Shown here: piece by piece, positions 56,085-64,000 of the stretch
Layout of the letters: each line of letters starts with the position of its first letter
How positions within the stretch are numbered: position 1 is the first letter of the stretch
NCBI GenBank assembly: GCA_913061145.1
Contig: CAJXUQ010000003.1
Coordinates: 123,208-187,207, forward strand
DNA length: 64,000 bases
Reading direction: 5' to 3'
From: an uncultured Haliea sp.
GTDB lineage: Bacteria > Pseudomonadota > Gammaproteobacteria > Pseudomonadales > Halieaceae
Position numbers and translations under genes: made by a program
The notes under the pieces: model-generated
The model's database searches: none
Told to the model about the DNA's origin: nothing
What the model saw: the letters and a program-made list of their open reading frames with translations, nothing else

Positions 56085-56876
56085 ATGGACAAGCCACACC
56101 CGAAACGCAAGCGCAGCCGGCAGAGACGGGACGTCGCCTTGATGGTCACCTGCCTCGCGGATCTGATGCGCCCATCGGTCGGCTTCTCGGCAATACGACT
56201 GCTGGAACGCGCGGGCTGCCGCGTCACCGTGCCGGAGCAGCAAACCTGCTGTGGCCAACCTGCCTACAACAGCGGTGAAGTCGATGCGGCGGTGCCGGTT
56301 GCACGTGCCGTCATCGAAGCCTTCGAGCCTTTTGACTACGTCGTCGTACCCTCCGGCTCCTGCGCAGGCATGCTCAGCCACCACTACCCGGCGCTGTTTG
56401 AGGGGGAGTGGCACCAGCGCGCCCTGGCGCTGTCCGCAAAAACCTGGGAGCTGACGCGTTTCCTGACTGAAGTGGCGCGGCTGCCCGCGCCGCGGCACAA
56501 GCCACTGGAGAGTGCCGTCACCTACCACGACAGCTGCGCCGCTCTGCGCGAGCTCGGTGTGCACCAGCAACCGCGGCAGCTACTACAGGAGCAATGTGGT
56601 GTGCAGGTGAGTGAGCTGAGCCAGAACCAGGTCTGCTGCGGTTTTGGCGGCACCTTCTGCGCGCGCATGCCCGAAATTTCCGCGAAGATGGCCGATGACA
56701 AGCTGGACAATGCGGTCGCTTCCGGGGCGACTATAGTGGCCGCCGGCGATCTGGGCTGTCTGCTGCACCTTTCCGGCCGCGCCCGCCGTCGAGGCCTCAA
56801 GCTGGAGTTCCGGCATGTTGCCGAGTTGCTCGCCGGTGATCCTCGCGGCCCCGGCATCGGAGAGGGTCGGGAATGA
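56085..56876 (+). CDS. lutA: Lactate utilization protein A (CCG-domain Fe-S protein)
   Basis: VTCLADL, QTCCGQP, SGSC, TYHDSC, CCGFGGTF and DLGCLLHL. Confidence 0.9.
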   Translation: MDKPHPKRKRSRQRRDVALMVTCLADLMRPSVGFSAIRLLERAGCRVTVPEQQTCCGQPAYNSGEVDAAVPVARAVIEAFEPFDYVVVPSGSCAGMLSHHYPALFEGEWHQRALALSAKTWELTRFLTEVARLPAPRHKPLESAVTYHDSCAALRELGVHQQPRQLLQEQCGVQVSELSQNQVCCGFGGTFCARMPEISAKMADDKLDNAVASGATIVAAGDLGCLLHLSGRARRRGLKLEFRHVAELLAGDPRGPGIGEGRE

Positions 56877-58303
56877 AGCTCGCCAGCAATGAGTTCCTGC
56901 AGGCCTCAAGTGCTGCCCTGTTGGAGGAAGACAAAGCACAGCGGCGCTCGCTCATCGGTCAGTTCCTGCCCCTGGCGCGGGACGCAGCCGCCAGTGCCTA
57001 TGGCGATTTCGACGCCCTGCGCGCACACATGAAACGGGTGCGGCGTCACACCATGACTCATCTCAGTCATTATCTGGAGCAGTTTGAGGAGGCAGCCGTA
57101 CAGCACGGCAACCAGGTGCACTTTGTCGCCAACGCAGAGCAACTCAACAGCAAGGTGCTCTCGATCTGCCAGGCGCACAACGCCCGACGCGTGGCCAAAG
57201 GCAAATCGATGGTCACAGAGGAAACCGGCCTCAACGAACTCCTGCTCAAGGCAGGGCTGGACGTGCTGGAAACTGACCTGGGTGAGTACATCATCCAGCA
57301 GGCGGGCGAGACGCCCAGTCACATCGTCGGACCGGCACTGCACAAATCGCTGGCGGAAATCCGCCAGCTGTTCCTCGACAAACACAAGCTGGGAGACCGC
57401 GAACTCGAGACGGTAAGCGAAGTCGTTGAAGAAGCGCGGGGGGTGTTGCGCGAGCAGTTTCTCGCTGCAGACGTCGGCATTATCGGGGCCAACGCGCTGA
57501 TCGCCGAGCACGGCACCAGCATGCTGGTCACCAACGAGGGTAACGGCGATCTCTGCGCCAACCTGCCGCCGGTGTTGATCGTCTGCACAACCTTCGAGCG
57601 CGTACTGCCTCGCGCCGAAGATGCCATGGCACTGCAGCGCCTGCTGGTGCGCTCCGCTACAGGACAGCCACAGACCTGTTATACCAGCTTTTACACGGGC
57701 CCGCGCCGAGAGGACGATGTGGATGGCCCTCTGGAAACCCATATCATCCTGCTGGACAACAGGCGCAGCGATATCCTCGCCAGCGACTACAGTGAAATGC
57801 TTGACTGCATTCGCTGTGGCGCCTGCCTCAACCACTGTCCCATTTACATTGGCGTCGGTGGACACGCTTACGGCTGGGTCTATCCAGGCCCGATGGGTTC
57901 GGTGTTGACGCCGCTGCTCACGTCACTGGAGCAGGCGCACCATCTGCCCAACGCCTGCACCAGCTGTGGCCGCTGCGCGGAGGTCTGTCCGGCGAATATT
58001 CCGCTGCCGGACCTGCTACGCGACCTGCGGCAGGACGAGAGCGTGCAGCAGTTGAAACCGGCCCGCTGGCGCAACGGGCTGCGGTTGCACGCGTGGTTGC
58101 TGCGCCATCCAGGCCTCTACCGCAGTCTCACCGGCTGGACTATAAGCGTGCTCGGCCTGCTGGGCAAACGCCGGGGCGCGTTTCGCCGCCTGCCCTTTGC
58201 GGGCGGCTGGACCGGCCAGCGCGACGTCCCGGCACCGGAAGGCGGAGGCACATTTATGCGTCAGTATGCGGCACGCCGACGCAGGGGAGGCAAACGTGGC
58301 TGA
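56873..58303 (+). CDS. lutB: Lactate utilization protein B (4Fe-4S)
   Basis: KGKSM, ETDLGEYIIQ, NEGNG, CIRCGACLNHCP and CTSCGRCAEVCP. Overlaps lutA by 4 nt (ATGA). Confidence 0.93.
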   Translation: MKLASNEFLQASSAALLEEDKAQRRSLIGQFLPLARDAAASAYGDFDALRAHMKRVRRHTMTHLSHYLEQFEEAAVQHGNQVHFVANAEQLNSKVLSICQAHNARRVAKGKSMVTEETGLNELLLKAGLDVLETDLGEYIIQQAGETPSHIVGPALHKSLAEIRQLFLDKHKLGDRELETVSEVVEEARGVLREQFLAADVGIIGANALIAEHGTSMLVTNEGNGDLCANLPPVLIVCTTFERVLPRAEDAMALQRLLVRSATGQPQTCYTSFYTGPRREDDVDGPLETHIILLDNRRSDILASDYSEMLDCIRCGACLNHCPIYIGVGGHAYGWVYPGPMGSVLTPLLTSLEQAHHLPNACTSCGRCAEVCPANIPLPDLLRDLRQDESVQQLKPARWRNGLRLHAWLLRHPGLYRSLTGWTISVLGLLGKRRGAFRRLPFAGGWTGQRDVPAPEGGGTFMRQYAARRRRGGKRG

Positions 58304-59000
58304 ATCCGTCAGGGCTGAGCTGTTCGCCCGACTACGCGAACAGGAAACCGCCGTGGAGCCCGAGCAGATAGCGCTCGCGCTCGCTGCACTTGGCCACGCG
58401 GAGCCCGCGCGAACACCGCACGCTGACGTGCACACCGCGTTCCTGGCCAATGTGCTGGCCAACAAGGGCACCGTGGAACTGGCTCGGGATCGCGGTGCCG
58501 CGGTGCAGGCCATAGGGCGCTATCTCTACCAACGCTTTCGCACCCATAAACTCGTTGCAGGTAATGACCCGCGGCTGGCGGCGATGCCCTGGCGGGATGG
58601 TGGTGTACTGCCGCGATTCGGAGCGGCTGAAAACGGTGACTCGGCGGCATTGAGCTATGCCAGGTTGGGGGTTGCCGAGACCGGCGCCATCGTGACCTAC
58701 ACGGGCCGCGCCAACCCGGGGCGCAACAACCTGTTACCTGAAGATCACCTGGTCTTGATCAACCGGGAAGACGTTGTCGCGACCCTGGAAGATGCCTGGG
58801 CGAGAATACGTCATGACACGGCGGCAAGCGGCTGGCCACGCGGCATCCAGTTTATCGCCGGCCCTTCGAGCACTGCCGACGTGGAAGCGCAGCTGGTGAT
58901 GGGCGCACACGGCCCCCGACGCTGGCATGTCATCCTTGTGGGCGACACACCAGCGGAAGTGTTGGCGCAAGCCAGTGAAGGTGTGCGGGCGCCTAGTTAG
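58296..59000 (+). CDS. lutC: Lactate utilization protein C (LUD domain)
   Basis: AETGAIV and FIAGPSSTADVE...GAHGPR motifs. GTG start overlaps the lutB stop. Confidence 0.88.
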   Translation: MAESVRAELFARLREQETAVEPEQIALALAALGHAEPARTPHADVHTAFLANVLANKGTVELARDRGAAVQAIGRYLYQRFRTHKLVAGNDPRLAAMPWRDGGVLPRFGAAENGDSAALSYARLGVAETGAIVTYTGRANPGRNNLLPEDHLVLINREDVVATLEDAWARIRHDTAASGWPRGIQFIAGPSSTADVEAQLVMGAHGPRRWHVILVGDTPAEVLAQASEGVRAPS

Positions 59001-59568
59001 GCGTGAAGTTGAACTTCTGCCCACCCAGCGTGGCCTCGTACATCAAACCGCCTTTGGCAATGGTAAACACCGCCATACCCTTGCGATAGCCGAGGCTGGC
59101 AGTGGAGGCATCATTGCGACCGCCACTGACACCGGCGCTGACACCGCCACCGGTGCTCGCTTCCGCTGACACCCCTGCGGTAATGGCTACCGCCGTGGCC
59201 TGTGCACCGAATTCGAAGTTACCGCTGGTGAACTGCTCCAGAGCCGTGGCGTTCTCAAAGAAAATGATCTGGCTGAAGGCCTGTCCACCCAGCTGGAAGC
59301 CCACCGTGAGCTGGGTCATGGTCGCTTCACCGATCATTTCACCCTGCCGGTAGACCTGCCCCTTGCCGTGTGCGCCACCGATACCAATACCCCCCTTGCC
59401 GATGGTCGGAAACAGGGCGTAGCCGTAGGCTGCATCAAAGTAGGCGGCACTTTCGCCGGCACTGCGAAATGACGCCAGTGCCTCGGCGTAATTGTCGGCC
59501 CTGGCCAGAGGCGAGAGCGCCAGCGCAAGCAGAAGGTACAGGGCGGACACTACGTTGGTCTTATTCAT
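58993..59568 (-). CDS. Ysc84/SYLF-like exported lipid-binding protein
   Basis: Signal peptide, FPTIGKGGIGIGGAHGKG, GFQLGGQ and KGGLMYEATLGGQKF. Confidence 0.8.
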   Translation of the reverse strand: MNKTNVVSALYLLLALALSPLARADNYAEALASFRSAGESAAYFDAAYGYALFPTIGKGGIGIGGAHGKGQVYRQGEMIGEATMTQLTVGFQLGGQAFSQIIFFENATALEQFTSGNFEFGAQATAVAITAGVSAEASTGGGVSAGVSGGRNDASTASLGYRKGMAVFTIAKGGLMYEATLGGQKFNFTPN

Positions 59569-59654
59569 GGACTGCCTCACATTTCTTGTTGGGAACCAGC
59601 CTGAACCATAGCACTGATTGCCAAATTTCCGTAGCGCATGCACGCAGAGGGCCA

Positions 59655-62309
59655 CTATCCGGTATTGCGCATACCCGCCGCGATACCGGCGAAGGTGACC
59701 ATGATCGCCTGTTCAAGCACCCCCTGGGGTTCACGCCGCTGACGCTGCAGCAATTCCGCCTGCAACACATTGAGGGGGTCGGTGTAGATGTTGCGCAACT
59801 GAATGGATTCGCGAATCCAGGGCGAATCCGCAAGCAGGGTTTCGCCGCCGCTGATTTCCAGAACCGTATCTGCATCACGCTGCAGGGCGGATCGCAGCGA
59901 CTGCCCCAGCCAGTGCAGTTCCTGCGGTACCAGACACGCGTCGTAGTGCGCCGACAACCCGGCATCGGCCTTGGCGTAGACCATTTCCAGCATCGAGAGG
60001 CGCGTGGCAAAAAAGGGCCAGCCAGCCGCCATCTCACGCAAGCGCCCCGCGTGACCGGCATCCAGCGCCTGTCTAAGGGCGGCGCCGGCACCCAGCCACG
60101 CCGGCAACATCAGGCGGTTCTGGGACCAGGCAAAAATCCAGGGAATCGCGCGCAGGCTTTCGATACCACCGCCGCCGCGCCGCCGTGCCGGCCGTGAGCC
60201 GAGGGGCAGGCCAGCGAGTTCCTGCTCAGGCGTTGCATAGCGGAAGTAGGCAATGAAATCCGGCTCCTCCCGAATCACCCGCCGATACTCGGTGCAGGAG
60301 CCGGCAGCCAATTGCTCCATGAGATCACGCCACTCCTGGCGCGGCGTCGGTGGGGTTTGCAGGTTGGCGCGACAGATTGCGCTGGTGTAGAGCGCCAGGG
60401 TCTTCACCGCAAGTGAGGTCCAGCCCAGCTTGGTGCGAATCATTTCGCCCTGCTCGGTCACCCGCAGGCCCTGTTCCAGTGACCCTGGGGGCTGAGACAG
60501 CAGTGCCGCCTGTGCCGGCGCGCCGCCCCGCCCTATCGTACCGCCGCGGCCGTGAAACAACGTGAGGCGCACATCACTGGCGGCGCACACCGCCAGCAGC
60601 TCTTCCTGCGCCCGGTATTGCGCCCAGGCCGCCGCCAGTACACCTGCATCCTTCGCCGAGTCCGAGTAGCCAATCATCACCATCAGCTGCCCCTGGATGT
60701 GCCCGCGATACCAGGGATCCGCAAGCAGGGCCGTGACCACCTCGCGAGCCCGGGACAGGTCATCGAGGGTCTCAAACAGCGGCACCACCGGCAGGTCGAA
60801 GGGGCAGCCGGCCTCGCGCAGCAGCAGGTGCACCGCCAGCACATCGGAGGCCTGACGGGCCATGGAGATCACGTAGGCCCCGAGCGCCTCACGGGGCTGA
60901 CGGGCCACCACCGCAAAGGTGGCCAGTACTTCGGCCACCGCCTCGCTGGGTGTCCAGCGGGGCGGCACCAGCGGGCGCCTGCTGGCGAGCTCCTGGCGCA
61001 GAAACGCGCAGCGCGCATCCTCGTCCCAGGCGGCGTAGTCACCCAACCCCAGCCAGGTGGTCAGCTCGGAGAGCGCTTCCGTATGCCGTGCACTGTCCTG
61101 GCGGATGTCGTGGCGCAGCAGATGCACCCCGAAACAGCGTACTCTACGCAGCAGATCCAGCAGGGCACCGTCCGCGATCACCTGCATCCCACAGGCCTGC
61201 AGAGAGTGGTAACAGAGGGAGAGCGGCTGCCACAGATCCTCCCGGGTCAACAGTGACGCACTGTCGGGGGACGCGCCGGCCAGAGCCGCCTCGATCGTCT
61301 GCAGGTCGCTTTTCAGCCGCTCGCGCAAGCGCCGCAGAACGGCGCGGTAGGGCTCGTGGGAACCATCGGCCGCCTCGGCGAGAGCCGGAACGCAGACAGT
61401 CATGGACAGCTCCTCCACCAGTCGCGTCACGTCCTGCAGGTAGAGCTGGATCGCCTGCCAGCGGCTCAGCCAGAGCACTTCAGAGGTCACTTCGGCGGTA
61501 ACGTTGGGATTGCCGTCCCGGTCGCTGCCCATCCAGGAACCAAACGTCACCGGAGCCGCCTCCAGGGGGAGCCTGCTGCCGCAGCATTCCTGCAGCGCCG
61601 CATCAAGCCGGCGCATGTACTCCGGCACCGCACGCCACAGGGAGTCCTCGACCACAGCGAAGCCCCACTTCGCCTCATCGACCGGGGACGGCCGCTCGGT
61701 GCGGAAATCATCTCCGTACCAGATCTGGGCAATCAGCTCACGCAGACGGGTGTGCAGCTGTTCCTGTTCGCGCCGGGTGAGGCCGCCCAGTTCCAGTTGT
61801 GACAGGCAGCGACCGATCTCGGTCTGCTTGTGGATCAGGGTGCGCCGCATGATTTCTGTGGGGTGAGCGGTGAGCACCAGGTCGATGCGCAGGGCCGCGA
61901 CGGCGTTGACGATAGACTCAGCCGGAACGCCCTCCTCCAGCAGGGCTTCGAAATTGCCGCTGAGGTTGCGGGACGCTGAGAACAGGGGGTCCATCTGCCG
62001 TGACACGGTGTGGTGCTGGTCGGCAATATTGGCGAGATTGAGGAACTGGCTGAATGCACGCGCTACCGGCACCAGCTGCTGGTTGTCCAGCGCGCGCAGC
62101 ACCGCCAGCAGCTCGGCGTGAGCGGCATCCTCGCCGCCGGCCCGCGCCGACTTCGACAGGCGGCGGATTTTCTCCACGAGGTCCAGAAACTCGGGGCCGT
62201 TCGCCGCGGCGATCGTGTCGCCCAGCAGATGGCCGAGAAAGCTCACGTTGCTGCGCAACTCACTGTAATCGGAACGCTCACCGCTGCCAGCTTCCCGGGT
62301 GGCTACCAC
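59655..62309 (-). CDS. ppc: Phosphoenolpyruvate carboxylase
   Basis: [40 protein letters not shown] and C-terminal [10 protein letters not shown]. Confidence 0.98.
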
Positions 62310-63304
62310 TGGCTGAACCTCCGCAACAGATCACACACGCGGGCCGAGTAGCCCCATTCATTGTCATACCAGTTAAGCACGCGCAGATAGCGCTCGTTGA
62401 CAACCGCCGTGAAGCCCGCGTCGTAGATGGACGAGTGGGCGTTGCCAATGATATCCGTCGAAACAATCGGTCGTTCACTGAAGGCGAGGATACCTTGCAG
62501 GGCTGGGGAGGCGGCGGCCGTGCGCACCGCCTCGTGCACCGCATCCACCGTAACCGGGCGAGCCAGTGTGACGAACAGATCGACCACTGAACCGTCGGGA
62601 ACCGGTACCCGCGAGGCGATGCCGTGCAGGCGCCCCTTGAGCTGCGGCAGCACCTCACCCACCGCTTTCGCCGCCCCGGTTGAGGTGGGGATGGTGTTCT
62701 CCGCGGCCGCCCGACTGCGCCGCCAGTCCGAGTGCGGCACATCGGCGAGTCGCTGGTCGTTGGTGTAGGCATGCACCGTGTTGATCACGCCCTCTTCGAT
62801 CCCGAAGGCGCTATCCAATACGCTTGCCATGGGCGCGAGACAGTTCGTCGTGCAACTGGCATTGGAGACAATGCGATGCTCCGGCCGCAAGCCATCATCG
62901 TTGACACCCAATACCACTGTGTAATCGATCGGGTCAGACGCCGGCACAGTGAGCACCACCCGACCCGCGCCCGCCCGCAGATGCCCCTCGAGCTGGCTTC
63001 GCTTGCGAAAGGCGCCTGTCGCCTCCACCACAGCATCGATGCCCATCTCTCCCCAGGGCAGGGCTGCTGGATCGCGCTCGCTGATCAGCTTGCAGCGTCC
63101 ACCCGGGGTGACCAACTCGTCACCTTCCAGCGCGAGCGACTTGCCAAACGGACCCATGACGGTGTCGTAGTTCAGCAGATAGCGCAGGGCCGCATGGTCA
63201 AACAGGTCGTTGATTACCACGACCTGTATATCGGGGTCGTTCTCCAGAATGCGGAATACCGAGCGGCCTATCCGGCCAAAGCCATTGATTGCTACACGCA
63301 TCAT
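62303..63304 (-). CDS. gap: Type I glyceraldehyde-3-phosphate dehydrogenase (intact active site)
   Basis: [35 protein letters not shown] and WYDNEWGYS are all present. Confidence 0.96.
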
Positions 63305-64000
63305 GCCGCCTCCTCAGTGTGGTCCAGTGCCGCATACAGACGCGCCACATCAAGTAGGCGTGCTGCGTGGCCCAGGGTCTCATACCAGCCCAGGGCCTTG
63401 ATGGTGTGCTTGCCGGCCTTGATGGTGCCGCAGGCATCGAATACCAGCGAGTGGGGATTGCCAATGACGTCCGAGGACACCACCGGGTCCTCCACGACGG
63501 TCACAATGTCCGCGTAATCCCCCGCGTGGCGACGCATGCAGTCGTTGACGGCGTCAGCCGTTACCGCCGTGTCGGCGAAGACCAGGTTGACGTCAAGCAG
63601 GCAGCCCTGATGGATCGGCACATTCAGGGCGGAGGTCAGCACTTTGCCGGCGAGCGCGGGCAGCACGTGCCCCAGCCACGCCCCTGCCTCGTGCTGGTTG
63701 GGAATGATGTTCTCTGCAGCGGAGCGGCTGCGACGGAAGTCGCTGCCCGCATAGTCCTGCAATACCTGGTCGGAGGTGTAGGCGTGGACCGTGGTCATGC
63801 TGCCGCACTCGATGTCAAACTCCCCGGACAACGCATGCAACAGGAGGCACAGCGCCGTCGTGGTGGCCGAGCCTGCGGATATCATACGATCAGCTGCCTG
63901 AATGCTGTCGCTGTTGATCCCCGGCATGACGAGGCGATCAATGTGATCGCTGGGCAGGGTGCGCAACAGCACTCGCGGCGCACCCGCCTGTAGGTGCTGG
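63301..64000 (-). CDS. GAPDH-family paralog lacking the catalytic Cys (probable pseudoenzyme), 5' end outside the window
   Basis: The frame is open to the window edge (...QHLQAGAPRVLL...). It reads SAGSATTTALC in place of [11 protein letters not shown], while HAYTSDQ and RRSRSAAENIIP are retained. Confidence 0.85.
   Translation of the reverse strand, partial: QHLQAGAPRVLLRTLPSDHIDRLVMPGINSDSIQAADRMISAGSATTTALCLLLHALSGEFDIECGSMTTVHAYTSDQVLQDYAGSDFRRSRSAAENIIPNQHEAGAWLGHVLPALAGKVLTSALNVPIHQGCLLDVNLVFADTAVTADAVNDCMRRHAGDYADIVTVVEDPVVSSDVIGNPHSLVFDACGTIKAGKHTIKALGWYETLGHAARLLDVARLYAALDHTEEAA

Follow-up and report, generated by a model that had tools for sequence, protein, structure and literature searches.

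Why should a bacterium keep an intact gene for a glyceraldehyde-3-phosphate dehydrogenase (GAPDH) paralog without the catalytic cysteine, directly upstream of a gap gene with every canonical residue? The question is raised by one end of a 64,000-nucleotide stretch of DNA from an uncultured Haliea sp. (contig CAJXUQ010000003.1, positions 123,208 to 187,207; hereafter the window, numbered from its first nucleotide). The 3' two-thirds of the paralog gene lie on the minus strand at 63301–64000 (232 codons and a TGA stop at 63303–63301), and gap follows at 62303–63304 on the same strand. We refer to the paralog as GapX, a shorthand for the Cys-less GAPDH paralog that is unrelated to gapX/gapB of Corynebacterium glutamicum, and number residues as in Bacillus stearothermophilus GAPDH. 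An earlier note on this DNA had proposed a selected pseudoenzyme, for example a non-catalytic subunit of a heterotetramer, an allosteric or NAD(H)-sensing regulator of Gap, or a scaffold between Gap and phosphoenolpyruvate (PEP) carboxylase. The observations below place such pairs in bacteria of at least four phyla and suggest that gapX-gap encodes an undescribed two-subunit form of GAPDH.

An intact GAPDH paralog under purifying selection

Translation of the GapX frame (63999 to 63301, minus strand) gives no internal stops, and all 232 visible codons are open, free of frameshifts as the earlier note had read them. The fragment aligns with the adjacent Gap at 41% identity over 225 aa (BLASTP, E=1e-50), bearing out the relationship proposed there, and contains the Pfam domain Gp_dh_C (E=3.9e-37). 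Judging from a 95%-identical full-length ortholog of 339 aa (P0001), the window end cuts off about 106 N-terminal codons. All of the substitutions listed in the earlier note were recovered. Cys149 is replaced by Ala within SAGSATTTAL (codon GCC at 63865–63867, minus strand; the plus strand reads GGC), PTSTGAA of Gap is PNQHEAG in GapX with Thr208-Gly209 becoming His-Glu, and ASRVP is ALNVP with Ser230 and Arg231 becoming Leu and Asn. WYDNEWG of Gap is WYETLG, such that Asn313 is Thr and Glu314 is deleted or changed. HAYT (His176 and Thr179), Asp181 and RRSRSAAEN are retained; the segment from HAYT through the S-loop to PNQHE, approximately residues 176–211, is located at 63670–63789 (minus strand, to within a few codons) and keeps His176, Thr179, Asp181, RRSRSAAENIIP.

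The adjacent Gap carries Cys149, His176, Thr208-Gly209, Arg231 and Asn313, all canonical, and passes the type I GAPDH model TIGR01534 (score 404.3, cutoff 367.2). Score, motifs and tree position (see below) identify it as a canonical type I enzyme of 332–333 aa belonging to what we call the partner Gap clade. Its gene opens with two successive ATG codons at 63304–63302 and 63301–63299; the second is conserved among orthologs, and the position of the first is GTA, CTG or ACA elsewhere. From this comparison the true start is probably 63301–63299, with a product of 332 rather than 333 aa.

A protein search with the GapX fragment gave full-length matches of 339–341 aa at 72–95% identity in Haliea, Parahaliea, Kineobactrum and other Halieaceae, including the cultured strains Haliea salexigens DSM 19537, Parahaliea maris, P. 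aestuarii and P. mediterranea; the closest DNA loci (Halieaceae bacterium UBA5044 and TARA scaffolds) are 94.7% identical to the window end. These full-length Halieaceae orthologs consist of Gp_dh_N and Gp_dh_C, with an invariant Rossmann motif GFGQ(T/I)GR (GxGxxG) and an invariant Asp32 equivalent (IADIG). The 5' part of the gene, as seen through these orthologs, thus has neither a fused domain nor lesions, and the GapX tail (ending LDHTEEAA) has no Cys and no C-terminal extension.

We estimated the ratio of nonsynonymous to synonymous substitution rates (dN/dS) by the Nei-Gojobori method on codon alignments of 77 genome-matched gapX/gap pairs. Values for gapX are 0.05–0.10 at dS of 0.1–0.7, and those for the adjacent gap are about half as large (0.02–0.06); the visible gapX of the window gives 0.083, 0.031 and 0.060 against L001, L007 and L009 respectively. 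A metatranscriptome contig of 1121 nt spans 62473–63593 and crosses the gapX/gap junction, a second extends beyond the window end, and the stretch occurs in five RNA runs; contigs from RNA libraries may contain DNA, and we take this evidence as supportive rather than conclusive. A decaying pseudogene, or a recent inactive duplicate that has so far escaped stops, would account for the loss of the catalytic Cys and phosphate-site residues and for a gene that evolves about twice as fast as gap. This reading is refuted by 184 distinct intact orthologs of constant length, none of which has Cys149, by dN/dS of 0.03–0.10, by the metatranscriptome coverage and by a clade that spans several phyla, and we give it practically no credence. 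We conclude that gapX is maintained by purifying selection, as the earlier note had supposed.

Pairing of gapX with gap

A scan of one genome per species yielded at least 510 candidate loci, of which the best 80 were kept, all labelled as Halieaceae or unclassified relatives; together with L001–L005 these make up 85 Halieaceae loci. In every one of them gap directly follows gapX. At the window junction (63299–63320, minus strand) the sequence GCA-TGA-TG overlaps the gapX stop with the conserved gap start by 1 nt, and a GAGGAGG Shine-Dalgarno sequence is positioned 7–8 nt before that start, inside the final gapX codons. Among distinct Halieaceae junctions the stop/start overlap is 1 nt in 54 and 4 nt in 13, and a GGAGG-type Shine-Dalgarno sequence is present in 66 of 68.

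Other neighbours are common within this family. The PEP carboxylase gene ppc comes next after gap in 67 of the 78 Halieaceae loci with enough sequence; in the window it is located at 59655–62309 (minus strand, 884 aa), overlaps the gap stop, and is identified by its open reading frame and by a PF00311 match on the 99%-identical L001 ortholog. It is the final gene of the cluster in the window's lineage. The gene for 2-keto-3-deoxy-6-phosphogluconate aldolase (eda) precedes gapX in 46 of 77 loci with room for it, usually beside a divergent hexR-like regulator gene (HTH_6/SIS), so that the common layout in most genera (L005, L010–L083) is a hexR-like gene on the opposite strand followed by eda-gapX-gap-ppc. 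The Halieaceae module is part of an Entner-Doudoroff/anaplerotic operon. The window's lineage and H. salexigens have no eda here; a gene for GTP cyclohydrolase I, in divergent orientation, lies 145 bp upstream instead, indicating a changed promoter context for the operon. Two metagenome-derived relatives (L004:4736-7085 and L047:10020-12657) have ppc in two offset pieces, a frameshift or an assembly error, with gapX and gap intact.

To find more distant relatives we searched a GapX family profile against 1.84 billion representative proteins. Ranked between Halieaceae GapX and ordinary GAPDHs are proteins without Cys149 (Ser, Ala, Asn, Val or Gly instead) and without Arg231 (mostly Asn), with a degenerate 206–212 loop, from sources named as Planctomycetota, Acidobacteriota, Actinomycetota and unclassified marine bacteria. 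In all seven distant lineages chosen from this search GapX is encoded directly upstream of a gap gene whose product (about 332–338 aa) has all canonical residues, although in L095 the contig ends within the partner gene. At the distant junctions stop and start overlap, as ATGA or TGATG, or stand a few bases apart. Across these distant loci the partner gap is the only neighbour in common, and ppc follows gap in none of the eight non-Halieaceae pairs with gene tables. The scaffold between Gap and Ppc suggested in the earlier note is unlikely as a general function because the ppc linkage is confined to Halieaceae.

Two further comparisons bear on the specificity of the pairing. P0137, a representative of the partner Gap clade picked blind, has a Cys-less paralog upstream (Asn149, Asn231) with a 4-nt overlap, and P0141, the nearest non-partner GAPDH and our outgroup, is encoded in an ordinary gap-pgk operon. 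As a background control we retrieved 80 metagenomic GAPDH loci with generic patterns, mostly ordinary GAPDHs; 77 are solo and three are tandem. Two of the three tandems are the most partner-like loci and have Cys-less upstream copies (Ser149 and Ile149). In the third (L101:1944-3987) both copies keep Cys149 and Arg231, the upstream one reading SAGSCTTNV and AHRVP and resembling P0159; tandem gap pairs are therefore not all composed of a dead and a live copy. Altogether 96 of 96 GapX-type loci are paired (85 from Halieaceae, nine from the seven distant lineages and two from metagenomes), all with an upstream paralog that lacks Cys149, Arg231 or both, against a background of unrelated tandems of about 1 in 80. 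The tie to the neighbouring gap that had been suspected from the window alone thus extends, with its coupled junctions, throughout the loci examined.

A neighbour-joining tree of 152 sequences groups all GapX-type proteins in a single clade with long branches and all partner Gaps in another with short branches. Bootstrapping of a 74-taxon subset recovers the GapX clade in 80 of 100 replicates, or 96 of 100 if the most divergent member is allowed to float, and the partner Gaps in 66 of 100; a sister grouping of the two was not recovered by this method (3 of 100). Partner-type Gaps are the best-scoring canonical matches to the GapX profile, and both groups have a Tyr near position 41 in place of the His of other GAPDHs. 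The simplest reading of these sequences would be one old duplication followed by co-inheritance of the pair, probably with lateral transfer of gapX and gap together.

Several members depart from the common form. The GapX-clade protein P0138 (L094:5001-6038, Acidobacteriota) keeps Cys149 and has Arg231 replaced by Ser, Gly209 by Asn and Asp181 by Ala; the nucleophile and phosphate sites were therefore not lost together, and P0138 may stand midway in the loss of chemistry or may still have some activity. A predicted protein of 2089 aa, P0123, combines four GAPDH-like modules, all with Cys149, and a segment like phosphoglycerate kinase (PGK) in the order GAPDH-GAPDH-PGK-GAPDH-GAPDH; it could be a genuine fusion of enzymes for successive glycolytic steps, or an artefact of assembly. 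One marine lineage (P0128 and P0287; L090:6001-7263 and L091:6001-7263) encodes a 420-aa GapX with an additional N-terminal extension of about 85 residues that resembles an XRE-type helix-turn-helix by eye only; no Pfam or PDB match to it was found, even at E<=10.

That extended form, if it binds DNA, would indicate a regulatory role for the paralog, and GapX might more generally be a stand-alone sensor that binds NAD(H) or triose phosphate and acts on something other than the catalytic cycle of Gap, for example operon expression or another enzyme such as Ppc, without being a stoichiometric subunit of Gap. Non-catalytic moonlighting roles of GAPDH are common, GapX keeps nucleotide-binding features while having lost the chemistry, and in Halieaceae it is encoded in a central-carbon operon beside hexR and eda. 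But the extension is restricted to a single lineage and matches no known domain, all other members being GAPDH-sized and without an added domain; linkage to ppc, hexR and eda is found only in Halieaceae, whereas linkage to gap is universal among the loci examined; and the best-conserved element of GapX is the S-loop, a subunit-contact element. We regard a free-standing regulator as improbable.

A remodelled active site

The residues at the GapX active site were counted in 184 distinct ortholog sequences from Halieaceae. Position 149 is Ala in 155, Gly in 20, Pro in seven and Ser in two. Asn is invariant at 231 and His at 317 (replacing Tyr), His occupies 208 in 183 sequences and Glu or Asp occupies 209 in 183, and there is a Cys at the equivalent of 165 in all 184 and at the equivalent of 238 in 180. 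Ser148, Thr150, His176 (184/184), Thr179 and Asp181 are invariant, and Arg195 is kept. At position 313 Asn is found in 142, Thr in 25, Ser in 16 and Ala in one, so that the loss of Asn313 described in the earlier note is real in the window but is a local variant, most orthologs retaining the Asn. The S-loop (178–201) is the best conserved part of the protein, with a mean column entropy of 0.23 as compared to 0.5–1.4 elsewhere, and is also the segment of highest identity to Gap.

Across the whole GapX clade, positions otherwise nearly invariant among canonical GAPDHs and partner Gaps are altered in the active-site helix at 146–156, the inorganic phosphate (Pi) loop at 205–213, Arg231, His190 and Glu314, together with Asn6 to Met and Asn31 to Ser or Ala beside the dinucleotide fold. 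The replacement residues vary from lineage to lineage: position 149 is Ser, Ala, Asn, Val, Ile, Gly or Cys, members outside Halieaceae have Thr/Ser-Trp, Thr-Asn or Ala-Glu at 208–209, and Tyr, Phe or Leu is found at 317. No new residue conserved throughout the clade and able to replace the nucleophile was found in this comparison. With regard to the anion sites, Arg231 of the substrate phosphate (Ps) site and Thr208-Gly209 of the Pi site are lost, and Thr179, Asp181, Arg195, Ser148 and Thr150 are kept. The description of GapX as having systematically lost its chemistry consequently holds for Cys149, Thr208-Gly209 and Arg231 but not for Ser148, Thr150, His176, Thr179, Asp181 and Arg195, and because these six are invariant or nearly so the pocket is, as read from the alignments, remodelled rather than erased.

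Comparisons with curated models agree in placing GapX apart from known enzymes. TIGR01534 scores are 175.8 for the window fragment, 230.6 for P0001, 238.4 for P0018 and 283–322 for distant members, all under the cutoff of 367.2; the Epd models give 168.5 (TIGR01532, cutoff 530.55) and 177.1 (NF010058, cutoff 539), and the ArsJ-associated GAPDH model NF033735 gives 155 (cutoff 450). No GapX-type protein reaches any curated NCBIfam cutoff for GAPDH or Epd. We found no solved structure of any natural member of the clade. An AlphaFold2 monomer of a full-length ortholog, built from a 14-sequence alignment, had a mean predicted local distance difference test score of 67.5, and its S-loop and the strands of its catalytic domain scored below 50; this was most likely due to the shallow alignment, and the model was not used.

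A pocket with so many fixed residues might belong to an enzyme in its own right, in which GapX would act as an independent NAD(P)-dependent enzyme using His176 without thiol catalysis, or a remodelled and possibly metal-binding pocket, on a substrate related to the Gap reaction; gapX would then adjoin gap through a common pathway. An engineered C149A GAPDH is reported to retain phosphorylating activity, at a very low rate and through non-covalent catalysis. The invariance of the Rossmann motif and Asp32 and of Ser148, Thr150, His176, Thr179, Asp181 and Arg195 is in keeping with this proposal, as are the replacements fixed in Halieaceae at 208, 209, 231 and 317 and at the equivalents of 165 and 238, and a dN/dS as low as that of many enzymes. 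It is difficult to reconcile with a position 149 that varies among four residues within one family and more widely across phyla, with a His-Glu-His set that other clade members do not have, with the lack of any new residue conserved clade-wide, with the degradation of both anion sites for a phosphorylated substrate and Pi, and with the partner gap as the sole neighbour common across phyla. We consider an independent enzyme unlikely, though worth keeping in mind.

GapX as a putative subunit of a mixed GAPDH

We lean, with slightly more confidence than doubt, towards an interpretation in which GapX joins Gap in a mixed oligomer as a subunit that is non-catalytic and probably binds a nucleotide. 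As an obligate tetramer, GAPDH transmits NAD cooperativity through its S-loops, and the S-loop both forms the R-axis subunit contact and lines the NAD site of the neighbouring subunit; moreover, subunits that assemble co-translationally are often encoded by adjacent, coupled genes. We infer the mixed oligomer because GapX keeps the elements for oligomerisation and NAD binding, because position 149 drifts, as expected if no chemistry occurs there, and because of the gene order, the coupled junctions and the precedent of eukaryotic prozymes described below. Sequence comparison is likewise the source of the predicted inactivity of GapX, its NAD(H) binding, its association with Gap and the stoichiometry and regulatory effect of that association.

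In the proposed mixed oligomer the products of gapX and gap, which are transcribed together and translationally coupled, would co-assemble while being made, most simply as X2G2; the half-of-sites behaviour seen in GAPDH homotetramers would in this way be hard-wired. GapX would supply structure and a regulatory site binding NAD(H) or another ligand, and substrate turnover would fall to the Gap subunits alone. A stronger version, which we advance only tentatively from the same comparisons, is that in bacteria of several phyla, the abundant marine Halieaceae among them, this module encodes an obligate hetero-tetramer in place of a homotetramer, perhaps as the main GAPDH of these genomes. Two of its subunits would be catalytic and two permanently dead, and the nucleotide or ligand pocket kept by the dead ones would, together with their S-loop, give the catalytic pair a built-in allosteric sensor, for example of triose phosphate or NADH/NAD+.

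Several points weigh against a mixed oligomer. All canonical catalytic residues are present in the partner Gap, which, as far as its sequence indicates, is not obviously impaired and, unlike the active paralog of classic prozyme systems, has no visible need of a partner. The remodelled pocket is itself almost invariant in Halieaceae (His208, Glu/Asp209, Asn231, His317 and Cys at the 238 equivalent), which suits a functioning ligand or catalytic site better than a dead one. Arg10, which contacts the NAD pyrophosphate, is Gln in Halieaceae (GFGQxGR), and NAD binding is thus not assured. Genes with consecutive or regulatory functions may also be tightly linked although their products form no complex, and the trees are simple neighbour-joining trees in which long-branch attraction could inflate the monophyly of fast-evolving paralogs.

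The closest parallel is with prozymes, in which a dead paralog hetero-oligomerises with and activates an active one, as for trypanosomatid S-adenosylmethionine decarboxylase (PMC6221367) and the deoxyhypusine synthase heterotetramer (PMC3663545). GapX is similarly a dead paralog under purifying selection that co-occurs with an active one at all loci examined, and the parent enzyme is an obligate oligomer, which makes mixed oligomers structurally plausible. Prozymes differ in being eukaryotic and encoded by unlinked genes, with an active paralog that is impaired; GapX and Gap are bacterial, adjacent and coupled, Gap looks fully competent, and complex formation and activation are predictions. 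To our knowledge, the only heteromeric GAPDH of two paralogs is the chloroplast A2B2 enzyme. In that enzyme (A2B2 and (A2B2)n; PDB 2pkq, 7q54) one of the two paralogous subunits is regulatory, but chloroplast GapA and GapB are both catalytic and regulation resides in a C-terminal extension of GapB with a redox-active Cys pair, whereas GapX has neither Cys149 nor an extension.

Type I GAPDH itself (GapA; TIGR01534, EC 1.2.1.12) resembles GapX in its Gp_dh_N and Gp_dh_C domains, length, GxGxxG motif, Asp32, His176 and S-loop; GapX differs by the absence of Cys149, Thr208-Gly209 and Arg231, by its sub-cutoff scores and by its separate clade. The trypanosomatid flagellar protein TbGAPDHL (PMC4106842) is another GAPDH homolog for which inactivity is predicted, with a conserved nucleotide-binding GINGFG region and a retained ligand site proposed by its authors, but it is a eukaryotic paraflagellar-rod component, read as a relic, poorly conserved between species and unpaired with an active GAPDH gene. 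Epd and the ArsJ-associated GAPDH (NF033735) are, like GapX, specialised GAPDH paralogs in gammaproteobacterial gene clusters; they are enzymes that keep the catalytic Cys, and GapX is far below their cutoffs. A description of Pseudomonas putida GAPDH homologs (PMC12663938) covers GapA, GapB and two auxiliary proteins, one of them assayed for glyceraldehyde-3-phosphate oxidation, and leaves the catalytic cysteine unmentioned. A Halieaceae genomics paper does not mention the GapX paralog, and the literature searched yielded no account of a Cys-less GAPDH encoded beside gap in bacteria.

The concept of a pseudoenzyme partner is already known; what would be new here, to judge from the literature searched, is an operon-encoded pseudoenzyme partnered with its active paralog in bacterial central metabolism. 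Bacterial GAPDH, among the most studied of enzymes, is treated as a homotetramer. If our interpretation is correct, a dead-plus-live pair in several phyla would add a quaternary or regulatory form to a textbook enzyme, and would be an uncommon bacterial, operon-encoded counterpart of eukaryotic prozymes, in which half-of-sites reactivity and NAD cooperativity could be studied as a natural experiment. The system is testable, as cultured strains carry gapX-gap. Some public records label GapX proteins as 'type I glyceraldehyde-3-phosphate dehydrogenase' despite sub-cutoff NCBIfam scores, and metabolic reconstructions in which GapX figures as another active GAPDH are probably mistaken.

Beyond the cluster, on the 3' side of ppc, the window contains a three-gene LutABC-like cluster of the lactate-utilisation type (with CCG, LUD plus 4Fe-4S, and LUD domains) and a Ysc84-like gene. 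These neighbours are located at 56085–59000 (plus strand) and 58993–59655 (minus strand), arranged as in the TARA and UBA5044 relatives.

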